DNA from: Thermoanaerobaculia bacterium
GTDB lineage: Bacteria; Acidobacteriota; Thermoanaerobaculia; Multivoradales; Multivoraceae
NCBI GenBank assembly: GCA_963666565.1
Contig: OY762911.1
Coordinates: 4,672,001 to 4,736,000 of the forward strand
Direction of reading: 5' to 3'
DNA: 64,000 bases
Below, piece after piece: positions 5,338-62,700 of the stretch. Numbering within the stretch: the stretch's first letter is position 1; every line of letters begins with the position of its first letter. A program made the translations under genes and the position numbers. The notes under the pieces were generated by a model that saw only the letters and a program-made list of their open reading frames with translations, ran no database searches and was not told the origin of the DNA.

Positions 5338-6057
5338 GTGAACTCCGGGGACGATAGCACCAGCGTCGACGCGGGCGTCGAGGTCGTCAATCCGTGGGAG
5401 GAGCGGAAGGACCGCGGCAGGTTCTCCGCCCTCGTCGCCTCTCTCGTCCTCCTGGCCACCGCCCCGAGGAAGTTCTTCGACGGTACCCGGCCCGACGCGG
5501 GCATCTGGAGTCCGCTCTTCTTCGTGGGCCTGATCACGGTCATCTATGTCGTCCTGGGAGGCGTCGTTCTCACGGTCCTTTCGCTGACCCTTTCGGAACA
5601 GGCACTGGAGTCCGTCTGGCAAACCTGGTTCTGGACCAATCCGTCTCAGTTCGGAACCTCGGAGGAACTGCCCTTCGGCCCCACCCTGACCGCCCTCATC
5701 GGCTTCCAGCTCCTCCTGCTCACTCTCCCCCTCATCTTCGCCATCACGCTGATCGTGATGTTGATCTGGGGCTCGCTGGTCCACCTTCTTCTGGTCGCAA
5801 CTCGCACCCCGAGGCCTCACGGGTTCCGCGGCACCTGGGCCGTGATGTGCTACGCCAACGGTGCAGCCCTCCTGGGCATCGTTCCCGTCGCGGGCGGAGT
5901 CCTGGGAAGCGTCTGCAGCGCGGTTCTGGTCGGGATCGGCCTTCACGTCGTGCAGCGGGTCGGCGTCATTCGAGCCACGGTCCTGGCCTCGATCCTGCTC
6001 CTCCTGTCCTTCCTGGGGTGGCTGATCCCTCGCGCCTTGCAAGGCAGCATCTTCTAA
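5338..6057 (+). CDS. YIP1-like multi-pass membrane protein
   Basis: NPWEER..LLATAPRKFF N-terminus, about 5 hydrophobic helices and GFRGTWAVMCYA; GTG start 7 nt after TAAGGT. Confidence 0.65.
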   Translation: MNSGDDSTSVDAGVEVVNPWEERKDRGRFSALVASLVLLATAPRKFFDGTRPDAGIWSPLFFVGLITVIYVVLGGVVLTVLSLTLSEQALESVWQTWFWTNPSQFGTSEELPFGPTLTALIGFQLLLLTLPLIFAITLIVMLIWGSLVHLLLVATRTPRPHGFRGTWAVMCYANGAALLGIVPVAGGVLGSVCSAVLVGIGLHVVQRVGVIRATVLASILLLLSFLGWLIPRALQGSIF

Positions 6058-6122
6058 GGCCGACTTAGTAGAGTCGGGCGCCGCGCCCAGCCAGGGCGCC
6101 GAACGCCGACCCGCCTGACGCC

Positions 6123-7159
<1,037 letters not shown>

Positions 7160-11334: not shown

Positions 11335-11345
11335 GGGAGAAGAAG

Positions 11346-11768
11346 ATGGCACTTCAGGCAAGCAAGGTCCAGGTCGGCGACACCTACACCCAGAAGCTCA
11401 CCGACGACCTCTCCCGCACCCAGATCGTCCAGTACGCGGGCGCCTCGGGCGATTACAACCCGCTCCACTCCGACGAGATCTTCACCACCAAGGTAGCGAA
11501 GTACCCGACCGTCTTCGCCCACGGCATGCTGACGATGGGCATGACCGGCCGGATGGTGACCGACTTCGTCGGCGACGGCCGGCTGACCGCCTACGGCGTC
11601 CGTTTCACGCGCCAGGTGTGGCCGGGCGACGCGCTCACCGCCACGGCGAAGGTCGACGCGGTGCGCGAGGAGGACGGCCAGGGCCTGGTCGACCTGTCGG
11701 TGACGACGGTGAACCAGGACGGGGACGTCGTCGTGATGGGCAAGGCGACGGCGAAGATCGACCCGTAG
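11346..11768 (+). CDS. MaoC family (R)-hydratase/dehydratase
   Basis: YAGASGDYNPLHSD..FAHGMLTMG hydratase-2 motif. Confidence 0.9.
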   Translation: MALQASKVQVGDTYTQKLTDDLSRTQIVQYAGASGDYNPLHSDEIFTTKVAKYPTVFAHGMLTMGMTGRMVTDFVGDGRLTAYGVRFTRQVWPGDALTATAKVDAVREEDGQGLVDLSVTTVNQDGDVVVMGKATAKIDP

Positions 11769-11791
11769 CCTCTTGGCGAGGCTTCGCCCCC

Positions 11792-11813
11792 GAGTTATAC
11801 CGTGGTATAACTC
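11792..11813 (+). promoter_or_regulatory. palindromic operator overlapping the -10 box of the toxin-antitoxin operon
   Basis: Perfect inverted repeat GAGTTATACC-GT-GGTATAACTC containing TATAAC and ending 6 nt before the antitoxin ATG; typical of TA autoregulation. Confidence 0.7.
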
Positions 11814-11819
11814 AGGGCC

Positions 11820-12077
11820 ATGCACACCACCACCCTGCGAAAGGTCGGCGGCTCGATCATGCTCGCCGTGCCCCCGGTGCTCCTCGACCTGCTGACGCTC
11901 GGCGCCGGCGCCAAGGTGGACATCGGCGTCGAGGGCGACCGTCTGATCGTTGCGCCCAGAACCCGTCCAAGCTACTCGCTCGACGAACTGCTGGCGATGT
12001 GCGACGAAGCCGCGCCGGCGGACGACGAAGATCGTGCGTGGCTTGACGGCCCGGCTGTCGGCAACGAGTTGCTGTAA
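11820..12077 (+). CDS. PemI/MazE-type antitoxin (AbrB fold)
   Basis: LRKVGGSIMLAVP N-terminus, YSLDELLA and a W...VGNELL C-terminus; TAATG overlap with the toxin. Confidence 0.9.
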   Translation: MHTTTLRKVGGSIMLAVPPVLLDLLTLGAGAKVDIGVEGDRLIVAPRTRPSYSLDELLAMCDEAAPADDEDRAWLDGPAVGNELL

Positions 12078-12409
12078 TGCGCCGCGGCGAGATCTGGCTC
12101 GTCAGCCTCGATCCCGCCACCGGCCATGAACAACGGGGAACACGGCCGATTCTGATCGCGTCCCCCGCGCGTTTCAACGAACTGACCCGGACGCCGGTCG
12201 TACTTCCGATCACTACCGGCGGCCGCTTCGCGCGCAGACGCGGTTTCGCGGTCTCGCTTGACGACGCGGGTACCCGAACGGTCGGCGTGATCCGGTGCGA
12301 CCAGCCGCGCACTATGGACCTTGCCGCACGGAACGCCAAACGTCTGGAATCCGTTCCCGAGGAGATCGTGCACGACGTGCTGGCGCGCTTGGCCACGATC
12401 CTGACCTAG
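12077..12409 (+). CDS. pemK: PemK/MazF family endoribonuclease toxin
   Basis: RGEIWLVSLDPATGHEQRGTRPILIAS, VLPITTGG and RCDQPRTMDL. Confidence 0.9.
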   Translation: MRRGEIWLVSLDPATGHEQRGTRPILIASPARFNELTRTPVVLPITTGGRFARRRGFAVSLDDAGTRTVGVIRCDQPRTMDLAARNAKRLESVPEEIVHDVLARLATILT

Positions 12410-12445
12410 GTTGCACGGAACTGCCCGCCGAGCGGCCCGGGCCTT

Positions 12446-12641
12446 CCGCTGGGTTCGCGGTCTTCTGACCCGCCCGCGGGCGGCGCCGCAGAGCGGCGCA
12501 GCCCGAACGAAAGCGCCGCCGGCCAAAAGCCGGCGACCCCACTCCAAGCGAGACGCCAGCCCGAGAGGTGCCGGCCTCCGGCCGGCGCGTCTCTTCGGCC
12601 GCCTCCGGCGACAGCGGGTCGGAAGACCCGCGCACCCAGCG
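12446..12641. repeat. inverted pair of REP-like palindromes
   Basis: Degenerate copy at about 12446-12472 and reverse copy GCGGGTCGGAAGACCCGCGCACCCAGCGG at about 12614-12642. Confidence 0.8.
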
Positions 12642-12699
12642 GGCGACCCCGTTCCCTGCGCGACAGCGCAGCGGAGACCCCCTGTACCTGCTTCGTGGC

Positions 12700-13794
12700 T
12701 CAGGGATTGACGCCGTCCACGGCGATTTGGCGCAACGCATGGTCGCAAAGCACCAGCGCGATCATCGCCTCGCCCATCGGCACGAAGCGCGGCAGCAGGC
12801 AGGGGTCGTGCCGGCCCTTGGTGGCGATCGTCGTCGGCTCGCCGGCCCGCGTCACCGTGTCCTGGGGCTGCGGCAGGCTGCTGGTCGGCTTGACCGCGCA
12901 GCGCAGGACGATCGGCTGACCCGACGAGATGCCGCCCAGCATGCCGCCATGCCGGTTGCTCCGGGTGGCGACGCGACCGCTCCGCATCTCGAACGGATCG
13001 TTGTTCTCGCTGCCGCGCGCACGCGCGACGCCGAAGCCGGCGCCGTACTCGACGCCCAGCACCGCCGGCAGGCTGAAGAGCGCCTTGCCGAGGTCCGCCT
13101 TCAGCTTGTCGAACACCGGCTCGCCCCAGCCAGGCGGCACGCCCGTGGCCACGAGTTCCGAGACGCCGCCAACGGAATCGCGCTCCGAGCGCATCCGCTC
13201 GATCAGTTCCGCCATGCGCGCCGCGGCCTCCTGGTCCGGGCAGCGCACCGGGTTCGACTCGACCTGGTCGAGGGTGACCGCGGCCGGATCGTCGATCCGG
13301 CCGTCGATGTCGCCGATGCTCTTCACGTAGCCGACGATCCCGACCCCCCAGCGCTCCCGGAGCAGCTTCTTCGCCACCGCCGCCGCGGCCACACGCACCG
13401 AGGTCTCGCGCGCACTCGAGCGGCCGCCGCCCCGGTAATCGCGGAAGCCGTACTTCGCGTCGAAGGTGTAGTCGGCGTGGCCGGGCCGATACTTGTCCCT
13501 GATCTCGCTGTAGTCGCGCGGCCGCTGGTCCCGGTTCTCGATCAGGAAGCCGATCGGGGTCCCCGTCGTCGTGCCCTCGAAGATGCCGGACAGGATGCGG
13601 CAGCGGTCCGGTTCGTTCCGCTGCGTCGTCAGTCTCGACTGTCCCGGCCGGCGCCGGTCGAGGTCCGGCTGCAGGTCGGCCTCGGACAGCTCGAGCCCCG
13701 GCGGCACCCCGTCCAGGATGCCGACGTAGCCCGGCCCGTGGCTCTCGCCCGCGGTGGTCAGCCGCAGCGCGGTTCCGAACGTGTTCCCGGCCAT
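12700..13794 (-). CDS. aroC: chorismate synthase
   Basis: [35 protein letters not shown] and GRHDPC motifs. Confidence 0.98.
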
Positions 13795-51353: not shown

Positions 51354-51409
51354 GGACGGCCGGGGGGGAAGGTGCAAGGCCAGGCGATGCAATCCGGCAC
51401 GACAGCGCC

Positions 51410-51462
51410 CTGGGTGCGCGGGTCTTCCGACCCGCACTGGGTGCGCGGGTCTTCCGACCCGC
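51410..51462 (+). repeat. tandem duplication of the 26-bp REP-like unit
   Basis: CTGGGTGCGCGGGTCTTCCGACCCGC twice, separated by 1 nt, between gltB and gltD. Confidence 0.85.
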
Positions 51463-51522
51463 TTCCGAGTGAACTCGCGCGAGGCGCCAGCCTCGCTCCT
51501 TCCTGTTGAGAGGGCGGCAGGC

Positions 51523-53022
51523 ATGGGCAAGGACACCGGCTTCAAGGAGTACGCGCGCGCCGCGGTTCCCTACCAGGATCCGCTGATCCGCCTGAGTCAC
51601 TACGGCGAGTTCCTGGCGCCGGTGCCGGAACAGCACCTCGCCACCCAGGGCGCCCGCTGCATGGACTGCGGCGTCCCCTTCTGCCAGTCCGACGAAGGCT
51701 GCCCGATCGACAACCTGATCCCGGAGTGGAACGACCTCGTCTACCAGGGCCGCTGGAAGGAAGCGCTGCGGCGCCTGGAGAGGACGAACAACTTCCCCGA
51801 GTTCACCGGCCGCGTCTGCCCCGCCCCGTGCGAGGGCGCCTGCGTGCTGGGGATCACCGACCCGGCGGTGACGATCAAGAACATCGAGAACGCGATCGTC
51901 GACCGCGGCTTCGAGGAGGGCTGGATCGTTCCCCGCCCGCCCGTCAGGCGCACCGGCAAGAAGGTCGCGATCGTCGGTTCCGGGCCGGCGGGACTCGCCG
52001 CGGCGGCTCAGTTGAACGGCGTCGGCCACTCGGTCGCCGTCTTCGAACGCGAGGACCGCATCGGCGGCCTGCTGATGTACGGCATCCCGAACATGAAGCT
52101 CGACAAGCGCCTGGTCGTCGACCGGCGGATCGACCTGATGCGGGCCGAGGGCATCGAGTTCGTGACCGGCGCCCACGTCGGCGTGAACGTCGACGCCGCC
52201 GATCTGCGGCGCGACCACGACGCGATCCTGCTCGCCTGCGGCGCGACGAAGCCGCGCGATCTCCCCATCCCGGGCCGCGAGCTCGCGGGCGTCCATTTCG
52301 CGATGGACTTCCTGACCGAGCACACCCGTGCCCTTCTCGACGCCGATCTGCCGAGTGACGGCGCCCACCCTGTCCAGGCGCCGATTCACGCATCCGGAAA
52401 GAACGTCATCGTGATCGGCGGCGGCGACACCGGCGCCGACTGCATCGCGACCGCAGTGCGCCACGGCTGCGCCTCGCTGGTTAACTTCGAACTGCTGGAG
52501 CGGCCGCCGGACGACCGGGCCGCCGATAACCCGTGGCCGGAATGGCCCCGCATCTTCCGCGTCGAGTACGCGCACGCCGAAGCCGCGGCCCGGTTCGGCG
52601 CCGACCCGCGCGTGTTCTCCGTTCTCTCCAAGCGCTTCGTCGACGACGGCGCCGGCGGCGTCGCCGGTATCGAGACCGTCCGCGTCGCCTGGAAACGGGA
52701 CGCCGGCGGCCGCTTCGCGATGGAGGAAGTGCCCGGAACCGAAGAGACCTTCGAGGCCGAACTCGTGCTCCTGGCAATGGGCTTCCTCGGCCCCGAAGCG
52801 ACTCTCGGCGAGCGCTTGGGCCTCGCCACGGACGAGCGCAGCAACTTCGCGGCAGAACCCGGCCGGTACGCGACCTCGGTCGAGGGGGTCTTCGCCGCCG
52901 GCGACTGCCGCCGCGGACAGAGCCTGATCGTGTGGGCGATCGCCGAGGGCCGCGGCGCCGCGGCCCGGATCGACGAGTACCTGACCGGGGCCACCGAACT
53001 GCCGCTGCCGTCGGCGCTCTGA
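51523..53022 (+). CDS. gltD: glutamate synthase small subunit
   Basis: [44 protein letters not shown] and [14 protein letters not shown]. Confidence 0.97.
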
Positions 53023-53229
53023 CCACCCTCCGTTCTGGTCGAACAGATCGAACACCTCGATGCGGCATCCCACCGCGCGAACCCGACAGGTGTGCTCTTG
53101 ACTCCTCGGAGGAGGACATCAGGGACTACTCCACCGGCGAGCTTCCAAGGGCGATGTTCAACTGAGATGGGCTGCACCAAGAGGTGCCCTCACTCCATCT
53201 CTGCACCCCCGCCTTCGCGGCCGTCGACA

Positions 53230-53600
53230 AGGCCTTGGCCGCTCGGCGCCCCAACGCGCCGCTTGAAGCCGCGCCCTACCACACGCCCCATCACGACGGA
53301 ACCTGATCCCAACTCAGAGTCCAGAAGCCGAGCGACCGCCGAGCTACTCGCCGCCCACAACCAGTCGATCACCAGCGCATCGAACAACGCACCGAAACGA
53401 GAGTCTCCCTCCGACCAGGGTGCGCTGATCGTGAGAACCCCCGTGCTCCGCGCACCGCACGCGGAGCACGTCCGCGGCCAAGATGGTCCGGTACGCTGCC
53501 GGATACGGGGGTCCCGATCTCGGCATCGCAGGTACCTCCTCCTACGAGGAGGAAGTGCCTGCGGAACCGGGGCAAGCTCAACTCGTCCCCCTTCGATTCG
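53230..53600 (-). pseudogene. degenerate ISL3-family transposase fragment
   Basis: APWSEGDSRFGALFDALVIDWLWAASSSAVARLL..MGRVVGRGFKRR resembles the ISL3 N-terminal zinc-finger/HTH region; no catalytic domain follows. Confidence 0.65.
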
Positions 53601-53645
53601 GAAGGCCCCAGTGGTCTTCCGCCTTTCCCCCGGCATGCGACAAGG

Positions 53646-54257
53646 TCAATGAACGTCTTCGGAGAGCCAGTACCCGAACGCTTTCTCCAGATTCTCTCTG
53701 GCAGAGCTAACCGCTTGGCGCACATACTCGGCTTCAGAATCGGCACGAATCCGACTCAGCTCTCGCCGAACCGTAGTCAGGATCCGAGTAGCATTGCGCA
53801 TATCGGGATGCCGTGCATACGGGCGAAGGGCACGACGATGTTCCAGAAGTGCGCGGAGACTCCAATCTCGCAGTTCTGGGTGGCTGTACATGGGCTCTGT
53901 CGTTCTCGTGTCTGAGACACCATCCAAGATGCGAAAGACGATCGTCGCTTTGTAGTTCTCTGCAGCCATCCAGTCTGGATCATGCCAAGAGTCGAGTCTA
54001 CTAAGGGCGTTCTCCACTCGCGTCGGAACCTCGACGTCGATCAGGCGCACCATGCGATCCTCTTCCTTCGCTTCGGCGAATTCTCCTTGGAAAAACGAAA
54101 AGAGAATCGGCAGGGAGACAACGGCTAGAGAAGGCAGTAGAGCCACAAAGAAAGGCTCGTTCAGGAAACGCCATAGGCCTCGGCGCTGTCCCTTCATTGG
54201 GCCAGGCTCACAAGTGGCCTGTATCTTCGATTCGTCGGCTGACGCGCTACTCTTCAC
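53646..54257 (-). CDS. hypothetical protein with an N-terminal transmembrane segment, lower GC
   Basis: 203-aa ORF with PFFVALLPSLAVVSLPILFSFF; visibly more AT-rich than the flanks; directly downstream of the silent receptor cassette. Confidence 0.55.
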   Translation of the reverse strand: MKSSASADESKIQATCEPGPMKGQRRGLWRFLNEPFFVALLPSLAVVSLPILFSFFQGEFAEAKEEDRMVRLIDVEVPTRVENALSRLDSWHDPDWMAAENYKATIVFRILDGVSDTRTTEPMYSHPELRDWSLRALLEHRRALRPYARHPDMRNATRILTTVRRELSRIRADSEAEYVRQAVSSARENLEKAFGYWLSEDVH

Positions 54258-54328
54258 CCAAAGCGTCTCCCTGGTGTCAGCGGTTCCGAGAGAGTAGGGG
54301 GCCTCTGGCTGGGGGCGCTCAACCTAGC

Positions 54329-56737
54329 CTAGAAGCTGAACCGAGCGCCAATCTGTAACTGACGCCAGGACGTGACTCGGCCGGACGGTATGCCGAGGTC
54401 TTCGGGAACTACGCCGCCCTCCACGTTTCGCTGGCTGAAGCCGACCGCGAAGCTGTGTTCGTCGAATAGGTTAAAGGCCTCGACGAACACGTCCAGGCGC
54501 ATTTCATCGCCGAACCGGAAGAACCTGCCGACGCGGACATCGACCGTCTGGAGCGACTCGTTCCTGAAGGTGTTTCGTCCTACGACGGAACCATCGATGA
54601 TGGCTCGGTAGTCGGGGCAGTTGAAGATGGGCCACCCGCAGCCGATACTGTCGAAGCCTCGGACGGGTGTGTCGCGGTCGTTCACATCAACGGCCGTGTA
54701 CGGCGTTCCCGACTGGTAGTTCAGGATGCCGGAGATCTGGAAGTCGGCCGGCAACTGGACCATGCCCGTAACTACGAGCCGGTGCTTCACGTCACGATCC
54801 GAGAGGCCCCAGTCGTAGTCCAGGTTGCCGGTGTCGGAGATCGTGACGCCGGTCGCCGAACGCTCGTTCGAGTCGGTGTCGCGATCCTCGCCCCAGGTGT
54901 AGTGGGCGCCGAACTGGTAGCGACCGGTGAAGCGCTTGTTCGCCTTGAGCGTGACCGCCTGATACTCGGACTCGCCCCGAGACTGGCGAACGAGGACTTC
55001 GGCGCACCGGATTTCGTCGAGACCCGGGCACACGTCATTGCGGCCGGCCCACATCGGGCGGCCGTACGGGTCGTAGCCGCCGAAGACCCGGTTGAAGTCC
55101 GTGTTGCGCTGCAGGCTGGTCGCTTCGGCATACACGGCATCGACGCCGGCGCTCCAGCCGCCGCCGAGTTCCCGCTCCCAGCCGACGCTGGCGCGCAGCG
55201 TTTGGGCGTCGTCGAACTCGGGATCCACGTACGAGATGGCGGGAATGATGCCCGGCGGCGGGTTCTCGTTGTCGATCTGCGTCCCGAGCGGCACGTAGCC
55301 GTTCTGGCCGGGACGAACCGTGATGCGACCGTAGTTCGGCGGTACGCCGTTGGCCTGAACCTGGTTGGCGAACAGCAGGGTGGGCGTGCGGCCGAAGAAG
55401 AAGCCGATGCCGCCGCGGAGGACCGACCGGCCCTCGTCCTGGGACCTGGCGAAGCCGAAGCGGGGCGCCAGGTTCTCGGTGTCCGGGATCTGGCGGCCGT
55501 CCGGGTGCAGGTGATCCAGGCCGTCCGGGTTGTCCGTGGACGTATAGCGGAGGCCGTAACTGATTGTCACGTTGTCCCGCTTGAGACTGTCCTGCCCGTA
55601 GAAGGCGAGGGCCTCCTGAGTCTCGTCGTAGTTCGGGTACGTCGAATCGCCGAACCAGATTCGCGCCCGGAAAGCCTCGTTGCTCAAGAAGTCCTCCGGC
55701 GAGCCGAAGTCATAGCGGCCGTCGCGGCTGCCGGCGAAGAGCTGCGCCAGATCGTCCTTCGAGTAGTCGACGCCGAACTTCATGTCATGGGCACCGAACA
55801 GGTAGGAGAAGTCGTTCTTGACCTGGAGCTGCTCTTCCTCAACGAAGATCGGGAGGAAGTCGAACTTGCCAACGCTGTCAAACTCGTCGAAGAAGAAGCG
55901 GACCTGCGCCTCGATTGGCGTGCCGACCCGCTTGGACAGGCGATCCAGATTGTCCGTCGCGGACTGAATCCGGAACTCGTTGACGCCACGGCTGCCGACG
56001 ACCGAGGTCATCGATGCGATGATGGACAGCGTGTCCTCCGTCTTCAGCGACTCCTCGTCCAGGTAGTCGCTCTCCCGCTCGAAGTCCGTCACATTGGCGC
56101 GCAGGGTGATGAGGTTCGAGTCGTTGATCTGGTGGTCCAGCTTGCCGAAGAGGATCTGGTTGCTCACCGAGCGCAGGAACAAGCCGGTGGCGGAACCGTC
56201 GGCGTTTCGCTCGAAGCCGTCGACCAGAGCCGCGAATCCGGGCTCTGTCTCCGCCCTCTTCATGATCAGGTCGTAGGTGCTGTTGACGCCGGTCGAGCGC
56301 AGCGAGCGGGAGAACGGGATGTCCTGGTCGCGGAGGTCGACGCCGAAGTAGTAGTGGGTGCGATCCTGCTTGAACGGACCACCGACCGAGAAGCCGTAGT
56401 TCTGGGTGTCGAACTCGTCCACCGGTCGCGAGCCGTCACGGCCCCGGAAGTCGTCGAGAGGCGACGAAGGAATGTCCTCGGCCATGCTGTCGTCGCGGAA
56501 CTGGTAGAAGGCCGAGCCCCTCATCTCGTTCGTGCCGGACTTCGTGACCACGTTGACGAAGGCGCCGCCGTGCCGGCCGTACTCGGCCGAGAAGCCGTTG
56601 GTGATGACCTGGAACTGGCGAACCGTGTCCTGGGCGATGATCAGGCCGTCGTTCTCGGTCGCCTCGCCGCCCCGGCCATAGCCGAAGAAGGTGCTCTTGT
56701 TGTCCGCGCCGTCAACGGAAAGGCCGCTGTACATGCC
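54329..56737 (-). other. 5'-truncated, open-frame TonB-dependent receptor cassette (alternative barrel allele)
   Basis: 801 codons collinear with the 59067-61445 portion of the intact receptor; in-frame TGA two codons upstream; no signal peptide or N-terminal domain; ends in QIGARFSF. Confidence 0.9.
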
Positions 56738-56894
56738 TCACTGGTCGGGCTTCAGTTCCATGAAGGTCCGAAGAGCAGGAGAGAGTCCGGGAACAACCGA
56801 GAACTCCTGTAGACACCGTCACTTGTGAAGGTCTCGTTACGTTGCCCAAGGCCGCGGATGCGGTTGACGGCAAACGGCAAATCGCCGACGGGAT

Positions 56895-56922
56895 TGGGGG
56901 AAGTGGGGGACACGGTGAGGGA
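56895..56922 (+). promoter_or_regulatory. candidate integrase arm-type binding repeats
   Basis: TGGGGGA (56895), TGGGGGA (56904) and TGAGGGA (56916) direct repeats just upstream of the integrase. Confidence 0.4.
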
Positions 56923-56955
56923 GTGCCATACGGCCGTCCTTGCTATGTTCGAGCG

Positions 56956-58092
56956 ATGCCCCTTACCCAACGGAGAGTCGACGCCGTCAGACCCACCGGC
57001 CGGCCCTTCAAGCTGTACGACCGCGACGGCCTGATGCTCAGGGTCACCGCCGCCGGCAAGAGCCGATGGGTCTGGAGAGGCGTCGTCAAGGGAAAGCGGA
57101 TCGAGGTCGGCATGGGCTCGACACGTTTCCGCTCGCTGAAGGAGGCAAGGGAGGTCGCCTTCGAGAATACGAGAACGGCGAGACTGGGAGGCGATCCCAG
57201 AGCGGCCGTGTCCTCTGACGTTCCGACCTTCAGGGAAGCCGCGACGCTCTATCTGGAGATCCAGTCCACCGATTGGGGAGAGGCCCACTCCCGCCAAGTC
57301 AGACGGATGCTGGAGCGCCATGCGTTCCCGGGCTTCGGGGACCTTCCGGTAGACGAGATCCAGACCGCCGACGTGATGCGGGTTCTGGTACCGCTGTGGC
57401 GGCGTCAGAGGCCGACCGGACAGCGGCTCAGGCAGAGGATCGCCGGCGTCATGGCGTGGAGCGTAGCGGCGGGCTACCGGGCCGACGATCCGACGAGCAC
57501 TCTCTCGGCGGTCTTGCCCGCCGGCCGGACGCGGCGGAAGCACCATCGCTACCTGCCCGCCGTCAAGCTGCGCGAAGCACTGGTCAAGGTGCAGGACTCC
57601 GGAGCATGGATCGGAACGCGGTTGGCCATGCGCTTCCTGGCGCTGACGGCGGCGCGCTCCGGCGAGGTGCGTGGAGCGAGGTGGCGGGAGATCGATCTGG
57701 AGTCGGTCACGTGGACCGTTCCCGCCTCGCGGATGAAGGCGCGCCGTGAGCACCGGGTCCCCCTCTCCAGCGCGGCCCTTGCGGTCCTTGAGCGGGCCGG
57801 CGGACTTCGGGGTCGGGGCAGAGGGCTCGTCTTTCCCGGCGTCCAGGGGAAGATGGTCGGTGTGTCGGTGTTCGGTCGGCTGCTGAGAGACCTCGATATC
57901 GATTGCAGCCCGCACGGGTTCCGCAGTGCGTTTCGGTCGTGCTGCTCCGACGAGGGGATCGACCGGGAGTTGGCGGAACAGGCCCTGGCACACGCGGTCG
58001 GGAGCCAGGTCGAGCAGTGCTATGCGCGAAGCGACGTGCTGGAGCGCCGCCGAGACGTCATGGAGGCTTGGGGTGCGTTCCTGGTCCAGTAG
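56956..58092 (+). CDS. P4-like tyrosine integrase with an arm-binding N-terminal domain
   Basis: MPLTQRRVDAVRP..KLYDRDGLMLRV arm domain; catalytic R (TAARSGE), K (RMK), HxxR (HGFRS), H (LAH) and Y (CYAR) are intact; TG-C-TATGTT lies 6 nt before the ATG. Confidence 0.93.
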   Translation: MPLTQRRVDAVRPTGRPFKLYDRDGLMLRVTAAGKSRWVWRGVVKGKRIEVGMGSTRFRSLKEAREVAFENTRTARLGGDPRAAVSSDVPTFREAATLYLEIQSTDWGEAHSRQVRRMLERHAFPGFGDLPVDEIQTADVMRVLVPLWRRQRPTGQRLRQRIAGVMAWSVAAGYRADDPTSTLSAVLPAGRTRRKHHRYLPAVKLREALVKVQDSGAWIGTRLAMRFLALTAARSGEVRGARWREIDLESVTWTVPASRMKARREHRVPLSSAALAVLERAGGLRGRGRGLVFPGVQGKMVGVSVFGRLLRDLDIDCSPHGFRSAFRSCCSDEGIDRELAEQALAHAVGSQVEQCYARSDVLERRRDVMEAWGAFLVQ

Positions 58093-58334
58093 CGGACGGA
58101 CCGGACATGCAGGGCCGTGGTCCAGGCTCGCGCCGCAGCTTCGCCGCGGCGCGGGGGGCTTTCCCAGGGGCAATCCAGTCCCCTGGGCGGAGCCACGGAG
58201 CTGGCCCTGCCGTTGGCTCATAGACAGCCGGATCGAGCGCCTCCGCGAAGGCTTCAACGCCCCGGCGGAGACTCTCCGCGTGAAGTCCGCGAACCGTGCC
58301 GTCGATTCAATATCTTGAAGCGAGCCGCCCTCCG

Positions 58335-58364
58335 TTGACGGGGGGCGAAGCGATTCTCTATAGT
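58335..58364 (+). promoter_or_regulatory. sigma70-type promoter of the TonB-dependent receptor
   Basis: TTGACG-N18-TATAGT, about 150 nt upstream of the GAGGAG RBS and ATG 58512. Confidence 0.55.
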
Positions 58365-58511
58365 CGTACCCGGTCTGTGGCCTTGCGCGCGAGCGCCCCA
58401 CCACCGCCACCCACTCGGACAATCGAGAGACCTTCCACGCGTGAAGCGCACGCCGGTGAATTCGTGCCGAATTCGACGGCGCCTACTCAGACACAGAGGA
58501 GAAACCCCACC

Positions 58512-61445
58512 ATGCAGTCGACCCGCCTCCGGGCACGTCTTCTTGCGACCCTCCTGGCAACGGCCTGCGTCCTCCTGATCGGCGGCGCCGGCTTCGCCCA
58601 GACGATCACCGGCACCGTCCAGGGCTACATCTCGGATGTCGAGGGCGGCCCGATTCCCGGCGTCACGGTGACCGTCACCAACCAGGACACCGGCATCGCC
58701 CGCGCCGCCATCGCGGACGCCAACGGCTTCTACAGCGCCAAGGCGCTCCAGGTCGGCACCTACTCGGTGACCGCCGAACTCGCCGGCATGCAGACCACGC
58801 AGCAGAGCGACGTCTCCGTCCTGGTCGGCCAGATCAAGGACGTCAACCTGACCCTCGAGGTCGAGTCGACCTCCGAGGTGATCACCGTCACGTCCGAGGC
58901 CCCGATCATCGAGGTCAGTCGTTCGGGCGCCGCCAACTACATCGACGAGGTCGCCATCGAGAGCCTGCCGATCGTCGGCCGCGACTTCACCGACTTCGCG
59001 ATTCTCACTCCCGGCGTCCAGCGCGACCGTTCCCGCGGCTTCCTGACCATGGCCGGTCAGCGCGGCATGTACAGCGGCCTGTCGGTCGACGGCGCGGACA
59101 ACAAGAGCACCTTCTTCGGTTACGGCCGCGGCGGCGAGGCCACCGAGAACGACGGCCTGATCATCGCCCAGGACACGGTGCGCCAGTTCCAGGTCATCAC
59201 GAACGGCTTCTCGGCCGAGTACGGCCGGCACGGCGGCGCCTTCATCAACGTCGTCACGAAGTCCGGCACGAACGAGCTCAGGGGTTCGGCCTTCTACCAG
59301 TTCCGGGACGACAGCATGGCCGAGGATCTGCCGTCCTCGCCGCTCGACGACTTCAACGACCGCGACGGCTCGCGTCCGGTGGACACGTTCGACACCCAGA
59401 ACTACGGCGTCTCGATCGGCGGGCCGTTCAAGCGCGACCGTACCCACTACTATTTCGGAATCGACCAGCGCGACCAGGACATCCCGTTCACCCGGTTCCT
59501 GACCAACCGCGGCGGCAGCGTCTATGACCTGGTCATGCAGCGAGCGCAGAGCGAGCCCGCCTTCGCCGCCCTGGTGGACGGCTTCGAGCGAAACTCCGAC
59601 GGCTCCGCCACCGGCCTGTTCACGCGCTCGGTGAGCAACCAGATCCTGTTCGGCAAGCTGGACCACCAGATCAGCGACGCGAACCTGATCACCCTGCGAG
59701 CCAACTGGACGGACTTCGAACGGGAGAGCAGCTTCCTCGACGAGGAGTCGCTCAAGACGGAGGACACGCTGTCGATCATCGCGTCGATGACCTCGGTCGT
59801 CGGCAGCCGCGGCGTGAACGAGTTCCGAATTCAGACGGCCGACGACAACCTGGATCGCCTGTCCTTGCGGGTCGGCACGCCGATCGAGGCGCAGGTCCGC
59901 TTCCGCTGGAACGGCGCGAGCGTCGGCAAGTACGACTTCCTGCCGATCTTCGTGGAGGAGTCGCAGCTCCAGGTCAAGAACGACTTCTCCTACCTGTTCG
60001 GCGCCCACGACATGAAGTTCGGCGTCGACTACTCGAAGGACGACCTGGCCCAGCTCTTCGCCGGCAGCCGCGACGGCCGCTACGACTTCCGCTCGCCGGA
60101 GGACTTCCTGTCCAACAACTCAAGCGCCGCCCGGATCTGGTTCGGCGATTCGACCTATCCGAACTACGACGAGACCCAGGCGGCTCTCGCCTTCTACGGC
60201 CAGGACAGCCAGAAGCGCGACAACATGACGATCAGCTACGGCCTCCGCTACACGTCCACGGACAACCCGGACGGTCTCGATCATCTGCATCCGGACGGCC
60301 GCCAGATCCCGGACACCGAGAACCTGGCGCCCCGCTTCGGCTTCGCCATGGCCCAGGACGAGGGCCGGTCGGTTCTCCGCGGCGGCATCGGCTTCTTCTT
60401 CGGGCGCACGCCCACCCTGCTGTTCGCCAACCAGGTTCAGGCCAACGGCGTGCCGCCGAACTACGGCCGCATCACCGTCACTCCCGGCGAGAACGGCTAC
60501 GTGCCGCTCGGAACGCCGATCGACAATGAGAACCCGCCGCCGGGCATCATCCCCGCGATCTCCTACGTCGACCCCGAGTTCGACGACGCCCAGACGCTGC
60601 GCGCCAGCATCGGCTGGGAGCGGGAGCTCGGCGACGGCTGGAGCGCCGGAGTCGACGCCGTGTACGCGGAGGGCACGAGCCTGCAGCGCAACACGGACTT
60701 CAACCGCGTCTTCGGCGGCTACGACGAGTACGGTCGCCCGATGTGGAACGGCCGCAACGAAGGAACCTGCCCCGGAGTCCCGGGCGCCGAATGCGCCGAG
60801 ATCCTGGTTCGGCAGTCCCGCGGCGAGTCCGAGTACCAGGCGGTCACGCTGAAGGCGAACAGGCGCTTCACCGGCCGCTACCAGATGAGCGCCCACTACA
60901 CCTGGGGCAAGGATCGCGACACCGACTCGAACGAGCGTTCGGCGACCGGCGTCACGATCTCGGACACCGGCAACCTCGACTACGACTGGGGTCTCTCGGA
61001 CCGCGACGTCAAGCACCGTCTGGTGGTCACCGGCATGATCCAGTTGCCGCTCGACTTCCAGATCTCGGGCATCGTGAACTACCAGTCGGGTACCCCGTAC
61101 ACGCTGGTCGACAACGGCGTCGACTGGGCTTACTGTCGCACGGTCGGCTGGAACTGCCCGGACTACCGTGCGGTGATGGACGGCGTCGTCGTCGGCCGGA
61201 ACACGGAGCGGAACGAGTCGATCCAGACGATCGACGTTCGCCTCGGCAAGTTCTTCACCTTCGGCGACGGCATGCGGCTCGACGTCTTCGTCGAGGCGTT
61301 CAACCTGTTCGACGAGAACAGCTTCGGCGTCGGCTTCAACCAGCGCAACATCCGCAACGGCAACGTTCCCGACGACTTCGGGGTCCCGTCGTACCTGACG
61401 ACGCGCCCGCGCCAGTTGCAGATCGGAGGCCGGTTCAGCTTCTAG
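58512..61445 (+). CDS. TonB-dependent receptor (Oar-like, with an N-terminal carboxypeptidase-regulatory-like domain)
   Basis: Signal peptide ending GFA-Q; GTVQG..GGPIPGVTVTVTN; LPIVGRDF; FSAEYGRHGGAFINVVTKSGTN; NLAPRFGFA; C-terminal QIGGRFSF (terminal Phe typical of outer-membrane barrels). Confidence 0.93.
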   Translation: MQSTRLRARLLATLLATACVLLIGGAGFAQTITGTVQGYISDVEGGPIPGVTVTVTNQDTGIARAAIADANGFYSAKALQVGTYSVTAELAGMQTTQQSDVSVLVGQIKDVNLTLEVESTSEVITVTSEAPIIEVSRSGAANYIDEVAIESLPIVGRDFTDFAILTPGVQRDRSRGFLTMAGQRGMYSGLSVDGADNKSTFFGYGRGGEATENDGLIIAQDTVRQFQVITNGFSAEYGRHGGAFINVVTKSGTNELRGSAFYQFRDDSMAEDLPSSPLDDFNDRDGSRPVDTFDTQNYGVSIGGPFKRDRTHYYFGIDQRDQDIPFTRFLTNRGGSVYDLVMQRAQSEPAFAALVDGFERNSDGSATGLFTRSVSNQILFGKLDHQISDANLITLRANWTDFERESSFLDEESLKTEDTLSIIASMTSVVGSRGVNEFRIQTADDNLDRLSLRVGTPIEAQVRFRWNGASVGKYDFLPIFVEESQLQVKNDFSYLFGAHDMKFGVDYSKDDLAQLFAGSRDGRYDFRSPEDFLSNNSSAARIWFGDSTYPNYDETQAALAFYGQDSQKRDNMTISYGLRYTSTDNPDGLDHLHPDGRQIPDTENLAPRFGFAMAQDEGRSVLRGGIGFFFGRTPTLLFANQVQANGVPPNYGRITVTPGENGYVPLGTPIDNENPPPGIIPAISYVDPEFDDAQTLRASIGWERELGDGWSAGVDAVYAEGTSLQRNTDFNRVFGGYDEYGRPMWNGRNEGTCPGVPGAECAEILVRQSRGESEYQAVTLKANRRFTGRYQMSAHYTWGKDRDTDSNERSATGVTISDTGNLDYDWGLSDRDVKHRLVVTGMIQLPLDFQISGIVNYQSGTPYTLVDNGVDWAYCRTVGWNCPDYRAVMDGVVVGRNTERNESIQTIDVRLGKFFTFGDGMRLDVFVEAFNLFDENSFGVGFNQRNIRNGNVPDDFGVPSYLTTRPRQLQIGGRFSF

Positions 61446-61500
61446 GCTGAGCGGTGCCAGAGCAGCCGCGGCGCCCGAGGCCGCGGCAAAGAGAAATCGA

Positions 61501-61532
61501 GGGCCTCCCCAGCAACGGGGAGGCCCTTCTTC
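61501..61532 (+). terminator. intrinsic terminator hairpin
   Basis: GGGCCTCCCC-AGCAAC-GGGGAGGCCC followed by TTCTT, between convergent genes. Confidence 0.75.
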
Positions 61533-61553
61533 GTCAACGATCGCGGAGCGGCT

Positions 61554-62522
61554 TCAGAGCCGGAGAAGTCGAAGGAGTTCCGCTTCGTCGGCACACATCT
61601 GCGCCGCCTTGGCGATCTCGACCTCGGACAAGCCGCGGAGGCCGGCCAGGCGTTCGGCAAGGTCCGGGCTCGTCGGTACGCCGCGCGCATCGAGCACGGC
61701 GACCGCCATCCGGGCACGCCCTGCGGCGAGGCCCTCGTCACGGCCCTCGTCGCGCTCAGCTCGCAGCCACGGATCGTCGTCCGGGCCGGTACCCTCGAGC
61801 GCGCCCATAGCGCGGCCCACGCGACGGAGAACCTCCAGGGTCTCCGGCGACGGCAGGTCGCGGCTCAGGGCAACGTGGATCTCTTCGGCGGTCCAGCCCG
61901 GAAAGGCCCGGCTGGAGGCCGCTTCCCGGAAGCGCTCGCCGTGGTGAAGGTGAATCGTCAGACCGGACAGCAACGACCTCGGATACGAGCGTTCGTCCGG
62001 CACGTCGATCCAGACCTCCGGGAAGCCCCAAGCCTCGTACAGCGGCAGCTTCCACAACCGCGCGTCGGTCGAGTAGTCGACTTCCAGCACGACGTCCGGC
62101 AGTTCGCCGCCGTCAATGTCCACCCGCGCCCCGGCCGGCAACGCGGCCGGATCCAGGTAGAGGATCTGGTCGGCCTGCATCAGCACCCTGTACCCGCCGT
62201 CAGCCTTGGCGCGCACCAGATCCGCCGTCCCCAACGTCTCGATCGGCGCGCCTCTCGACGCCGCGATGCGCTCGGCCAACCTGGCCAACCGCTGCGAGGG
62301 GCGCTCGTGATAGACGGTCGTCGGTTCGCGCAGGACCATGGCCCGCTCCGTGCGTTCCTCCCAGTACTCCACGCGGCCCTCGTAGTCGTCGATCCGCTCC
62401 TTCGGGATCCGAACCGTCCGGCAACCGGACTCGGCGGCCAGGGCCAGCGGCGATGCAACCGGCTCGGGACGTCCCGCTTCCGGCGGCCGCGGGTTCGGGG
62501 TTCGGACGGGCGGTTCAGCCAT
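61554..62522 (-). CDS. Uma2-like putative endonuclease
   Basis: MQADQILY, LPDVVLEVDYST..KLPLYEAWGFPEVWID and an E.RDEGRDEG tail; TACGCT 6 nt before ATG 62522. Confidence 0.75.
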   Translation of the reverse strand: MAEPPVRTPNPRPPEAGRPEPVASPLALAAESGCRTVRIPKERIDDYEGRVEYWEERTERAMVLREPTTVYHERPSQRLARLAERIAASRGAPIETLGTADLVRAKADGGYRVLMQADQILYLDPAALPAGARVDIDGGELPDVVLEVDYSTDARLWKLPLYEAWGFPEVWIDVPDERSYPRSLLSGLTIHLHHGERFREAASSRAFPGWTAEEIHVALSRDLPSPETLEVLRRVGRAMGALEGTGPDDDPWLRAERDEGRDEGLAAGRARMAVAVLDARGVPTSPDLAERLAGLRGLSEVEIAKAAQMCADEAELLRLLRL

Positions 62523-62544
62523 GGCCCGAGCGTACACCGGCGCT

Positions 62545-62700
62545 CGGGCCTTCGGCAGCGAGAACCCGGACTGCGGAACGTCGCGGTCGAGAAAGGTCTC
62601 CACGAAACTCTGGCGCCACAGGGCGGACAGGTCGCCGTCCTCGGCCAGAAAGCTGCGAGGGAACCCGCCCCGCAACCAGAGCTTCCGCCATCCGCCTGGA
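62545..62700 (-). pseudogene. fragment of an AAA-ATPase/DUF4143-type gene
   Basis: KLWLRGGFPRSFLA..WRQSFVETFLDRDVPQSG matches the central motif of that family; no Walker motifs nearby. Confidence 0.6.

Follow-up and report, generated by a model that had tools for sequence, protein, structure and literature searches.

In a 64,000-nucleotide stretch from the genome of a sponge-type acidobacterium (Thermoanaerobaculia bacterium, contig OY762911.1, positions 4,672,001 to 4,736,000; the whole stretch is hereafter the window, in whose numbering all positions are given), an inverted, 5'-truncated copy of a TonB-dependent transporter gene, a tyrosine integrase gene, and the full-length transporter (receptor) gene lie in a row between 51 and 63 kb (Table 1). 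Judged from sequence relationships, the truncated copy is not a local duplicate of the receptor gene but the cargo of an islet of approximately 5.2-5.3 kb (~53014-58296). The islet carries an unknown open reading frame (ORF), the truncated copy (the silent cassette), and the integrase gene, and is integrated into the 3' end of gltD, immediately ahead of the receptor. The same islet is found in the same place in one other species of the genus, and its cassette has evolved under purifying selection. Exchange of the receptor by inversion of the segment between the two homologous copies, with the islet as the carrier of the alternative barrel, is the reading put forward here, with a probability of roughly 0.45.

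In the following, G000 stands for the genome of the studied contig, other G-numbers for further genomes of the genus, and L-numbers for loci. The comparison set consists of 41 other species genomes (42 species including G000). The silent cassette is designated C1, the part of the expressed receptor inside the repeat C2, and the N-terminal region of the receptor (58512-59057) N.

The receptor gene likely starts at 58512, behind a GAGGAG box, and encodes 977 residues ending in ...GGRFSF. The protein combines a CarboxypepD_reg domain with an OMP_b-brl_4 barrel (Pfam PF25183, E = 4.9e-68). Its AlphaFold2 model, built on an alignment of 70 diverse homologues (predicted local distance difference test, pLDDT, 89.9; predicted template modelling score, pTM, 0.88), contains a 22-strand barrel and an N-terminal plug, with short turns alternating with long loops, as in TonB-dependent transporters; at least 500 transporter chains in the PDB match the model at E <= 0.001. 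The best structural matches (Foldseek) are YddB (6ofr, E = 6.8e-47) and FusA (4zgv, E = 3.3e-46), from which the receptor is set apart by a sequence identity of 11-12%, the N-terminal CarboxypepD_reg domain, and membership in the Pfam family OMP_b-brl_4. The segment EVITVTSE (residues 122-129) fits the ExxTVT column pattern of the homologue alignment and is a candidate TonB box. A single copy of the receptor is present in 39 of the 41 other genomes of the genus, G017 having no match and G050 three; orthologues across the genus are 82-93% identical to the expressed G000 copy, and only two copies exceed 40% identity within the G000 genome itself.

The two arms of the inverted repeat (54326-56743 and 59058-61448) are identical at 2035 of 2380 aligned nucleotides (85.5%); in the protein alignment of C1 with the receptor, 682 of 803 columns are identical and 121 differ (~85-86%). 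The repeat has a sharp start at codon 186, halfway through the plug, and extends three bases past the stop codon, and C1 comprises the second half of the plug and the whole barrel, i.e., the C-terminal 80% of the receptor. Upstream of the boundary, similarity is at chance level (734 of 1000 shuffles score as high or higher); the first 17 nt past it are identical in both arms, and further identical runs between the arms measure 58, 52, 47, and 42 nt. As an earlier note on this DNA, made from the sequence alone, had claimed, indels preserve the frame, every gap being a multiple of three (3, 3, 9, 24, 6 and 9, 3, 6 nt), and both Cys pairs are kept in both copies (Cys 753/761 and 875/882 of the receptor, Cys 569/577 and 699/706 of the cassette). 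The same note's description of the cassette as promoterless agrees with a consensus scan of 53000-62000, in which the sole sigma-70-like match precedes the full-length gene (58335-58364) and none lies upstream of C1.

The ATG of C1 at 56734 aligns with Met186 of the full protein, and an in-frame stop codon lies two codons upstream. Expression of the truncated ORF alone from this ATG, as a barrel-only protein with a function of its own, is very improbable. The exact coincidence of the ORF start with the aligned Met186 and the constraint on the ORF (see below) would suit it, but C1 contains only half a plug and no signal peptide, which the export of outer-membrane barrels requires; in addition, no promoter-like site is found upstream, and a GAGG sequence stands only 1 nt before the ATG.

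The insertion of the islet is apparent from comparison with the islet-free relatives G014, G006, and G051, in which gltD is joined directly to the receptor upstream region. In G000, the stop codon of gltD is supplied by islet-borne letters after the left copy of the 8-nt repeat TGCCGTCG, and a degenerate gltD end with the native spacer occupies the far junction (58189-58296). The G050 islet starts with the same (G/T)CGCTCTGA after CTGCCGTC. As an 8-mer, TGCCGTCG is not rare (12 matches in the window vs 7.7 expected) and is weak evidence when taken alone. With an integrase at the end, flanking target repeats, and empty sites in relatives, the locus has the features of a site-specific integrative islet, and its junctions resemble those of a site-specific integration at the final gltD codons. 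No tRNA genes that might serve as integration targets are present in the window or in seven related loci. Among 34 orthologous loci, 9 show a direct join of gltD to the GATTCAA motif, 7 the G000-like spacer, and 16 no match to the motif, the remaining two being G010, with a different spacer, and G050, with the islet. In the nine genomes of the first form, the gltD frame runs into a conserved GATTCAACATCTTGA box; in the seven of the second, gltD has its own stop codon, followed by a spacer of 80-110 nt. The direct junction in G014 and G006 was considered as a possible excision scar and dropped: the same junction recurs in nine genomes and is probably native.

The cassettes of G000 and G050 are sisters (95.9% amino acid identity) on a deep branch of their own, and the host receptors of these two genomes group with different species; C1 is evidently a receptor fragment from a divergent lineage. 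Synonymous divergence (dS) between G000 and G050 amounts to 0.19 in the cassette and 0.19 in the integrase, as compared to 0.32 in the host receptor and 0.45 in gltD. Moreover, the G000 islet resides in a gltD background with the spacer and the G050 islet in one without it, and the closest relatives of G050 (G006 and G014, 4-5% diverged) have no islet. The islet is younger than its hosts, and we infer that it has spread horizontally. The two cassettes have the same boundary and the same upstream spacer, which indicates that the fragment was not captured twice. A search by junction pattern for further islets returned only the G050 record; two metagenome matches (L058 and L059) were discarded as 25-nt chance matches in DNA of 49% G+C.

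The integrase is single-copy in G000, and relatives 85-88% identical to it occur in six other species; within ~10 kb of these, neither receptor fragments nor inverted cassettes were found. The body of an integrative and conjugative element (ICE) is absent from both G000 and G050; in G000, no more than ~100 nt come after the integrase. For the 203-aa ORF downstream of the cassette, searches of Pfam, NCBIfam, and PADLOC gave no match and the Atlas yielded weak, sub-threshold leads; its region is absent from the G050 islet. The G+C content of 53600-54400, which holds this ORF and the 3' end of the cassette, is 55-59%, as compared to ~70% in the flanks; this is consistent with a foreign origin.

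Evidence for the functional state of the cassette comes from the comparison of the G000 and G050 cassettes with each other, which is informative because both copies are silent. Over 786 codons, they differ by 93.8 synonymous (Sd) and 38.2 nonsynonymous (Nd) changes, corresponding to a dS of 0.192, a nonsynonymous divergence (dN) of 0.0215, and a dN/dS ratio of 0.11 (bootstrap 0.07-0.16), or 0.10 after dropping the windows in which either cassette is nearer to a host gene. When orthologues are used to polarize the changes, the G000 branch has 47 synonymous and 17 nonsynonymous ones, and the G050 branch has 43 and 16. The non-coding islet spacers are 17% diverged, matching dS, and the integrase of the two genomes has a dN/dS of 0.14, as have the host genes. 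A ratio of 0.11 argues against a never-expressed fragment, for which a value approaching 1 would be expected, and constitutes the strongest argument that selection acts on the cassette now or did so until recently. The simplest route to such selection would be the joining of the cassette to the N-terminus of the receptor.

According to an alternative explanation, which appears unlikely, the cassette is inert, a relic of an aberrant rearrangement in which an ICE-type element, then located beside or within the receptor locus of another lineage, acquired part of the receptor; the fragment is carried along and never expressed. In favor of this reading, the integrase family otherwise occurs in ICE-like elements with a TraG-like coupling protein, the arrangement is rare, the ICE body is missing in G000, the G050 copy is broken, and the alternative orientation was not detected; the block pattern of the differences between the two barrels (see below) is likewise that of ordinary orthologue divergence. 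A relic should drift, however, whereas dN/dS is low over a dS of 0.19 along each of the two branches, matching that of the integrase and no higher than in the host genes. Furthermore, the frame of 801 codons is intact with only in-frame indels, and the boundary and upstream spacer shared by both copies leave no room for a double capture.

The geometry of the locus permits an exchange of barrels. Between the repeat arms lie the integrase, the only promoter-like site, and the first 185 codons of the receptor. As in shufflon-type systems, a full-length gene is accompanied by a 5'-truncated inverted homologue with which a crossover gives an in-frame product, and the recombinase gene is located inside the invertible segment, here with an integrase type unlike known invertases. 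In the proposed sequence of events, the islet inserted site-specifically in the last gltD codons, directly upstream of the conserved single-copy receptor; a reciprocal crossover anywhere in the 2.4-kb repeats would then invert the segment with the integrase, the promoter, and the N-terminus. The inversion would fuse the host N-terminus in frame to the cassette, giving an N+C1 gene with the 203-aa ORF behind it. The receptor displayed by the cell would then differ in six surface loops, with the host barrel C2 kept silent next to the integrase. Either the integrase, acting at the sharp 5' boundary, or RecA, using the identical runs of up to 58 nt, might carry out the crossover. The integrase-upstream module, which is conserved at the integrase loci of other species, ends ~20-27 nt from the cassette boundary, and a site-specific event at the boundary would fit because this module abuts it and 17 identical nt follow. 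The benefit could be escape from phages or bacteriocins, or altered uptake. The inversion, its agent (integrase or RecA), and its benefit are what we infer from this geometry.

Several observations weigh against such an inversion, which the earlier note had likewise named as one use of the cassette and which the geometry permits, always in frame. No inverted or chimeric form was found, and in both assemblies the host barrel is the expressed one. The N regions of G000 and G050 are not sisters and bear no trace of a past inversion, that of G050 being host-like and nearest to G006 and G014 (0.041-0.045). No N+C1 protein is found in a collection of 5.8 billion proteins, where the full-length protein most similar to the cassette is 87% identical. 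The arrangement is present in only 2 of the 42 species of the genus, and an order-level sample of 151 genomes revealed no further one. The integrase is of the ICE/P4 integration type and does not belong to a known invertase family; its relatives mark the ends of ICE-like elements in other settings, with ordinary host genes to one side of them and ICE-like genes to the other. With an identity of only 85% between the repeats, a RecA-dependent inversion would be rare. Finally, the G050 cassette contains a TAG nonsense codon and an 8.2-kb insertion, and is therefore dispensable there.

Four sequencing runs of one study contain 96-97% of the sampled words, and 17 other runs have shares of at most 0.15. 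Among the Logan contigs of the four high-share runs, the sole contig over both boundaries (X19, 56684-59117) has the assembled orientation. These contigs break at words shared by the repeats (56587-56684 and 59117-59214). Their joints, as listed, are skips of 20-26 nt, none of them strand-changing, and the contigs are silent on rare inversions.

An extension of the inversion reading, somewhat unlikely in its full form, treats the islet as a portable phase-variation module. The minimal islet would home to the gltD end because the neighbour is a conserved outer-membrane receptor, and would deliver a flippable foreign barrel; the ICE-type integrase would have been co-opted as an invertase, and switching would be horizontally transferable among sponge-symbiont Acidobacteriota.

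The earlier note had drawn its case for a functional cassette from the distribution of the differences between the two copies. The range in which it placed them (59480-61440) covers only part of the repeat, which begins near 59058, and its details hold. The 120 nt from 59101 (59101-59220) contain exactly 6 differences, all at third codon positions, and the six replaced block pairs are all found in the expressed gene and the cassette. The 22 strands were taken from the DSSP string of the receptor model, and the long loops were assigned to the outside and the turns of 2-4 residues to the periplasm, following the standard transporter topology; the sidedness of the loops is thus a matter of topology, not of model coordinates. 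On this predicted structure, the blocks fall within extracellular loops (L2, L4, L5, L8, L10, and L11), in line with what the note had expected. Differing columns make up 82 of 366 in loops, 31 of 336 in strands, 6 of 28 in turns, and 2 of 71 in the plug; by this assignment, loops differ more often than the rest (82/366 vs 39/436; odds ratio 2.9, p = 1e-7), with loops L6, L7, and L9 near-identical (3 of 109 columns differ). The differences are clumped rather than even: in 10-residue bins, the index of dispersion is 2.17, as compared to a mean of 0.85 and a maximum of 1.57 in 5000 shuffles, none of which reaches the observed value. Between C1 and C2, the overall dN/dS is 0.22; the six blocks alone give 0.60 and the remainder 0.14.

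The step from this pattern to a functional cassette fails. Of the 121 columns that differ between C1 and C2, 112 are also variable among 39 full-length receptor orthologues of the genus, and 474 of the 699 identical columns are invariant among them; the six blocks coincide with those that are hypervariable across the genus, mosaic among species. Because C1 lies at an orthologue's distance from the expressed copy (86%, vs 82-93% for other species), most of the divergence of C1 and C2 stems from expressed life in separate lineages. The loop pattern, having formed when each sequence was still an ordinary expressed gene, is silent on the present state of the cassette and represents ordinary between-species divergence. 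A constant scaffold with variable loops is to be expected of any diverged orthologue pair, and the informative test is that of selection between two copies of the silent cassette; it is this test (dN/dS 0.11), not the loop argument, that favors a functional cassette. The earlier picture of two alleles also overlooked the horizontally moving islet in gltD of which the cassette is a part. The loop mosaic itself extends over the genus (loops L2, L4, L8, L10, and L11; loci L013-L056), and in ~16 species the Cys-bonded L8 loop is swapped for a Cys-less form shorter by 8 residues. Such mosaic loops suggest recombination between lineages together with diversifying pressure on the surface.

The cassette could also act as a donor or partner for patchy homologous exchange (segmental conversion or post-transfer recombination) rather than in a two-state switch, with the islet ferrying foreign loop variants and yielding the mosaics of the genus; we consider this unlikely. 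The loop blocks do vary in such a manner (G015 has the L2 block of the G000 clade, and the Cys loop L8 is present or absent across clades), the cassette combines blocks resembling different lineages, and the identical runs of 58 to 42 nt listed above could be used. Local hints of exchange exist as well: within 60300-60450, the closest sequence to the G000 cassette is the host copy of G000 itself (0.027), and at the 3' end, 19 sites are common to the G050 cassette and the host copy of its own genome, vs 5 for the reverse. Over the whole length, however, within-genome sharing is not in excess (52 vs 55 and 58 vs 48 sites), the stretch 60300-60450 is highly conserved in all four sequences, which makes a contrast of 4 vs 9-11 differences weak, there is a single cassette and no array, and the host copies retain their lineage identity. 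Within-genome gene conversion is not supported overall: site patterns are symmetric, and the low-dS stretch 60291-60460 is conserved in all four sequences.

In the pilS/pilE system of Neisseria and the vls system of Borrelia, many silent cassettes take part in unidirectional segmental conversion. The present locus resembles these in having a promoterless partial copy of a surface-protein gene near the expression site, with differences mainly in exposed segments. Unlike them, it has a single inverted cassette in place of an array, and conversion tracts could not be demonstrated (52 vs 55 shared sites, with the two weak local hints); the earlier suggestion of a gene-conversion donor of the pilS/vls kind thus finds no support.

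The closest known system to the inversion proposed here is found in Bacteroides, namely the BT1040-BT1046 susC shufflon of B. thetaiotaomicron and the SusC/SusD inversions of B. fragilis, with Tsr-type invertases, as described in bioRxiv 10.1101/521070 and PMC9881135. In the account of the former, a tyrosine recombinase gene is enclosed by a full-length susC-like gene and two 5'-truncated ones. Recombination close to where their homology begins on the 5' side joins the promoter and N-terminus to another barrel, and phage pressure selects variants of the shufflon, whose proposed role is phage escape (bioRxiv 10.1101/521070). TonB-linked proteins are described as enriched among predicted targets of programmed inversion, and the long-read-confirmed inversions named in the same source come from four other phyla (PMC9881135). 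The common elements are thus a full-length transporter gene, one or more 5'-truncated inverted homologues, and a tyrosine recombinase gene between them. In contrast, the locus described here is from Acidobacteriota, with one cassette, no SusD partner, and no operon of its own; cassette and recombinase are carried on a horizontally transferred islet in gltD, the recombinase is of the Arm-DNA-bind_3/P4 type with ICE-like relatives, and inversion is a proposal.

In its mode of insertion, the islet is similar to P4-like islands and to the dusA islands of PMC4482086: an integrase marks one end, the final codons of a conserved gene serve as the insertion site, the element restores the stop codon, the far junction retains a displaced, degenerate gene end, and relatives have empty sites. 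It is unlike them in that a large inverted piece of the neighbouring gene, rather than of the target, makes up the cargo, and in that the element is tiny, its G000 copy being devoid of transfer genes. A literature search on the switching of TonB-dependent transporters by truncated inverted copies found no paper mentioning Acidobacteria. In gut Bacteroides, the exchange of TonB-dependent transporters through inversion is already documented; the present case is set apart by the phylum, the single operon-less cassette, the integration-type recombinase, and above all carriage on an islet that targets a neighbouring gene. If the cassette is used, a lineage could gain receptor-surface switching through the horizontal transfer of 5 kb of islet DNA, a recombinase of the integration type could serve, or tolerate, an inversion system, and the genus-wide mosaic loop alleles would gain a concrete vehicle.

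Table 1. Features of the gltD-receptor region, in window positions
Feature	Position	Strand	Remarks
gltD (glutamate synthase small subunit)	51469..53022	+	TIGR01317, E = 9.9e-226; last codons are the islet insertion site
Left copy of 8-nt repeat TGCCGTCG, islet left junction	53006..53013	+	
Islet cargo, low G+C	53023..54325	.	contains the 203-aa ORF
203-aa ORF	53646-54257	-	downstream of the cassette, same strand
Left arm, 2.4-kb inverted repeat	54326..56743	-	
Silent cassette C1	54329..56734	-	801 codons plus stop, homologous to receptor residues 186-977
Spacer and integrase-upstream module	56744..56934	+	160/192 positions identical to G050
Tyrosine integrase	56842..58092	+	Arm-DNA-bind_3, Phage_int_M, and Phage_integrase domains; conserved part from ~56935
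Displaced degenerate copy of gltD 3' end	58189..58222	+	~26/35 nt match 52988-53022 (eye count); native spacer next
Right copy of TGCCGTCG	58297..58304	+	directly before the conserved GATTCAA motif of the receptor upstream region
Sigma-70-like promoter match	58335..58364	+	TTGACG, 18-nt spacer, TATAGT; consensus match only
Full-length TonB-dependent transporter, 977 aa	58512..61445	+	signal peptide, CarboxypepD_reg, plug, 22-strand barrel
Right arm of inverted repeat (C2, residues ~183-977)	59058..61448	+	
Variable block 1	59490..59522	+	end of strand 3 and loop L2
Variable block 2	59901..59921	+	loop L4
Variable block 3	60114..60131	+	loop L5
Variable block 4	60747..60794	+	loop L8, Cys753-Cys761
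Variable block 5	61104..61157	+	loop L10, Cys875-Cys882; 8 extra residues in the cassette
Variable block 6	61347..61379	+	loop L11

Some additional features were observed at the related loci and in the surroundings. After the integrase relatives at L015, L016, L017, L018, and L019 (G022, G003, G013, and G016) comes a conserved 352-aa ORF of no known family and, in L017, also a TraG/TrwB-like coupling protein. This family of ICE-like elements is present in several copies and many fragments per genome, with up to 13 matches in G003. The insertion in the G050 cassette (L013, 4169-12420) carries a second tyrosine integrase (11335-12738, minus strand), a terminase-large-subunit-like gene (5765-6964, minus strand), and an ISL3 transposase; the same insertion sequence of 1343 bp occurs twice in L013 (1584-2926 and 8247-9589), its copies being 99.9% identical.

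Just upstream of gltD in the window, two tandem copies of a 27-nt unit, 96% identical, are located at 51406-51459. Just downstream of the receptor, a 373-aa gene (61554-62675, minus strand) has a weak match to Uma2 (putative restriction endonuclease). It constitutes an insertion relative to G014, G006, and G051, where position 61528 joins almost directly to ~62775.

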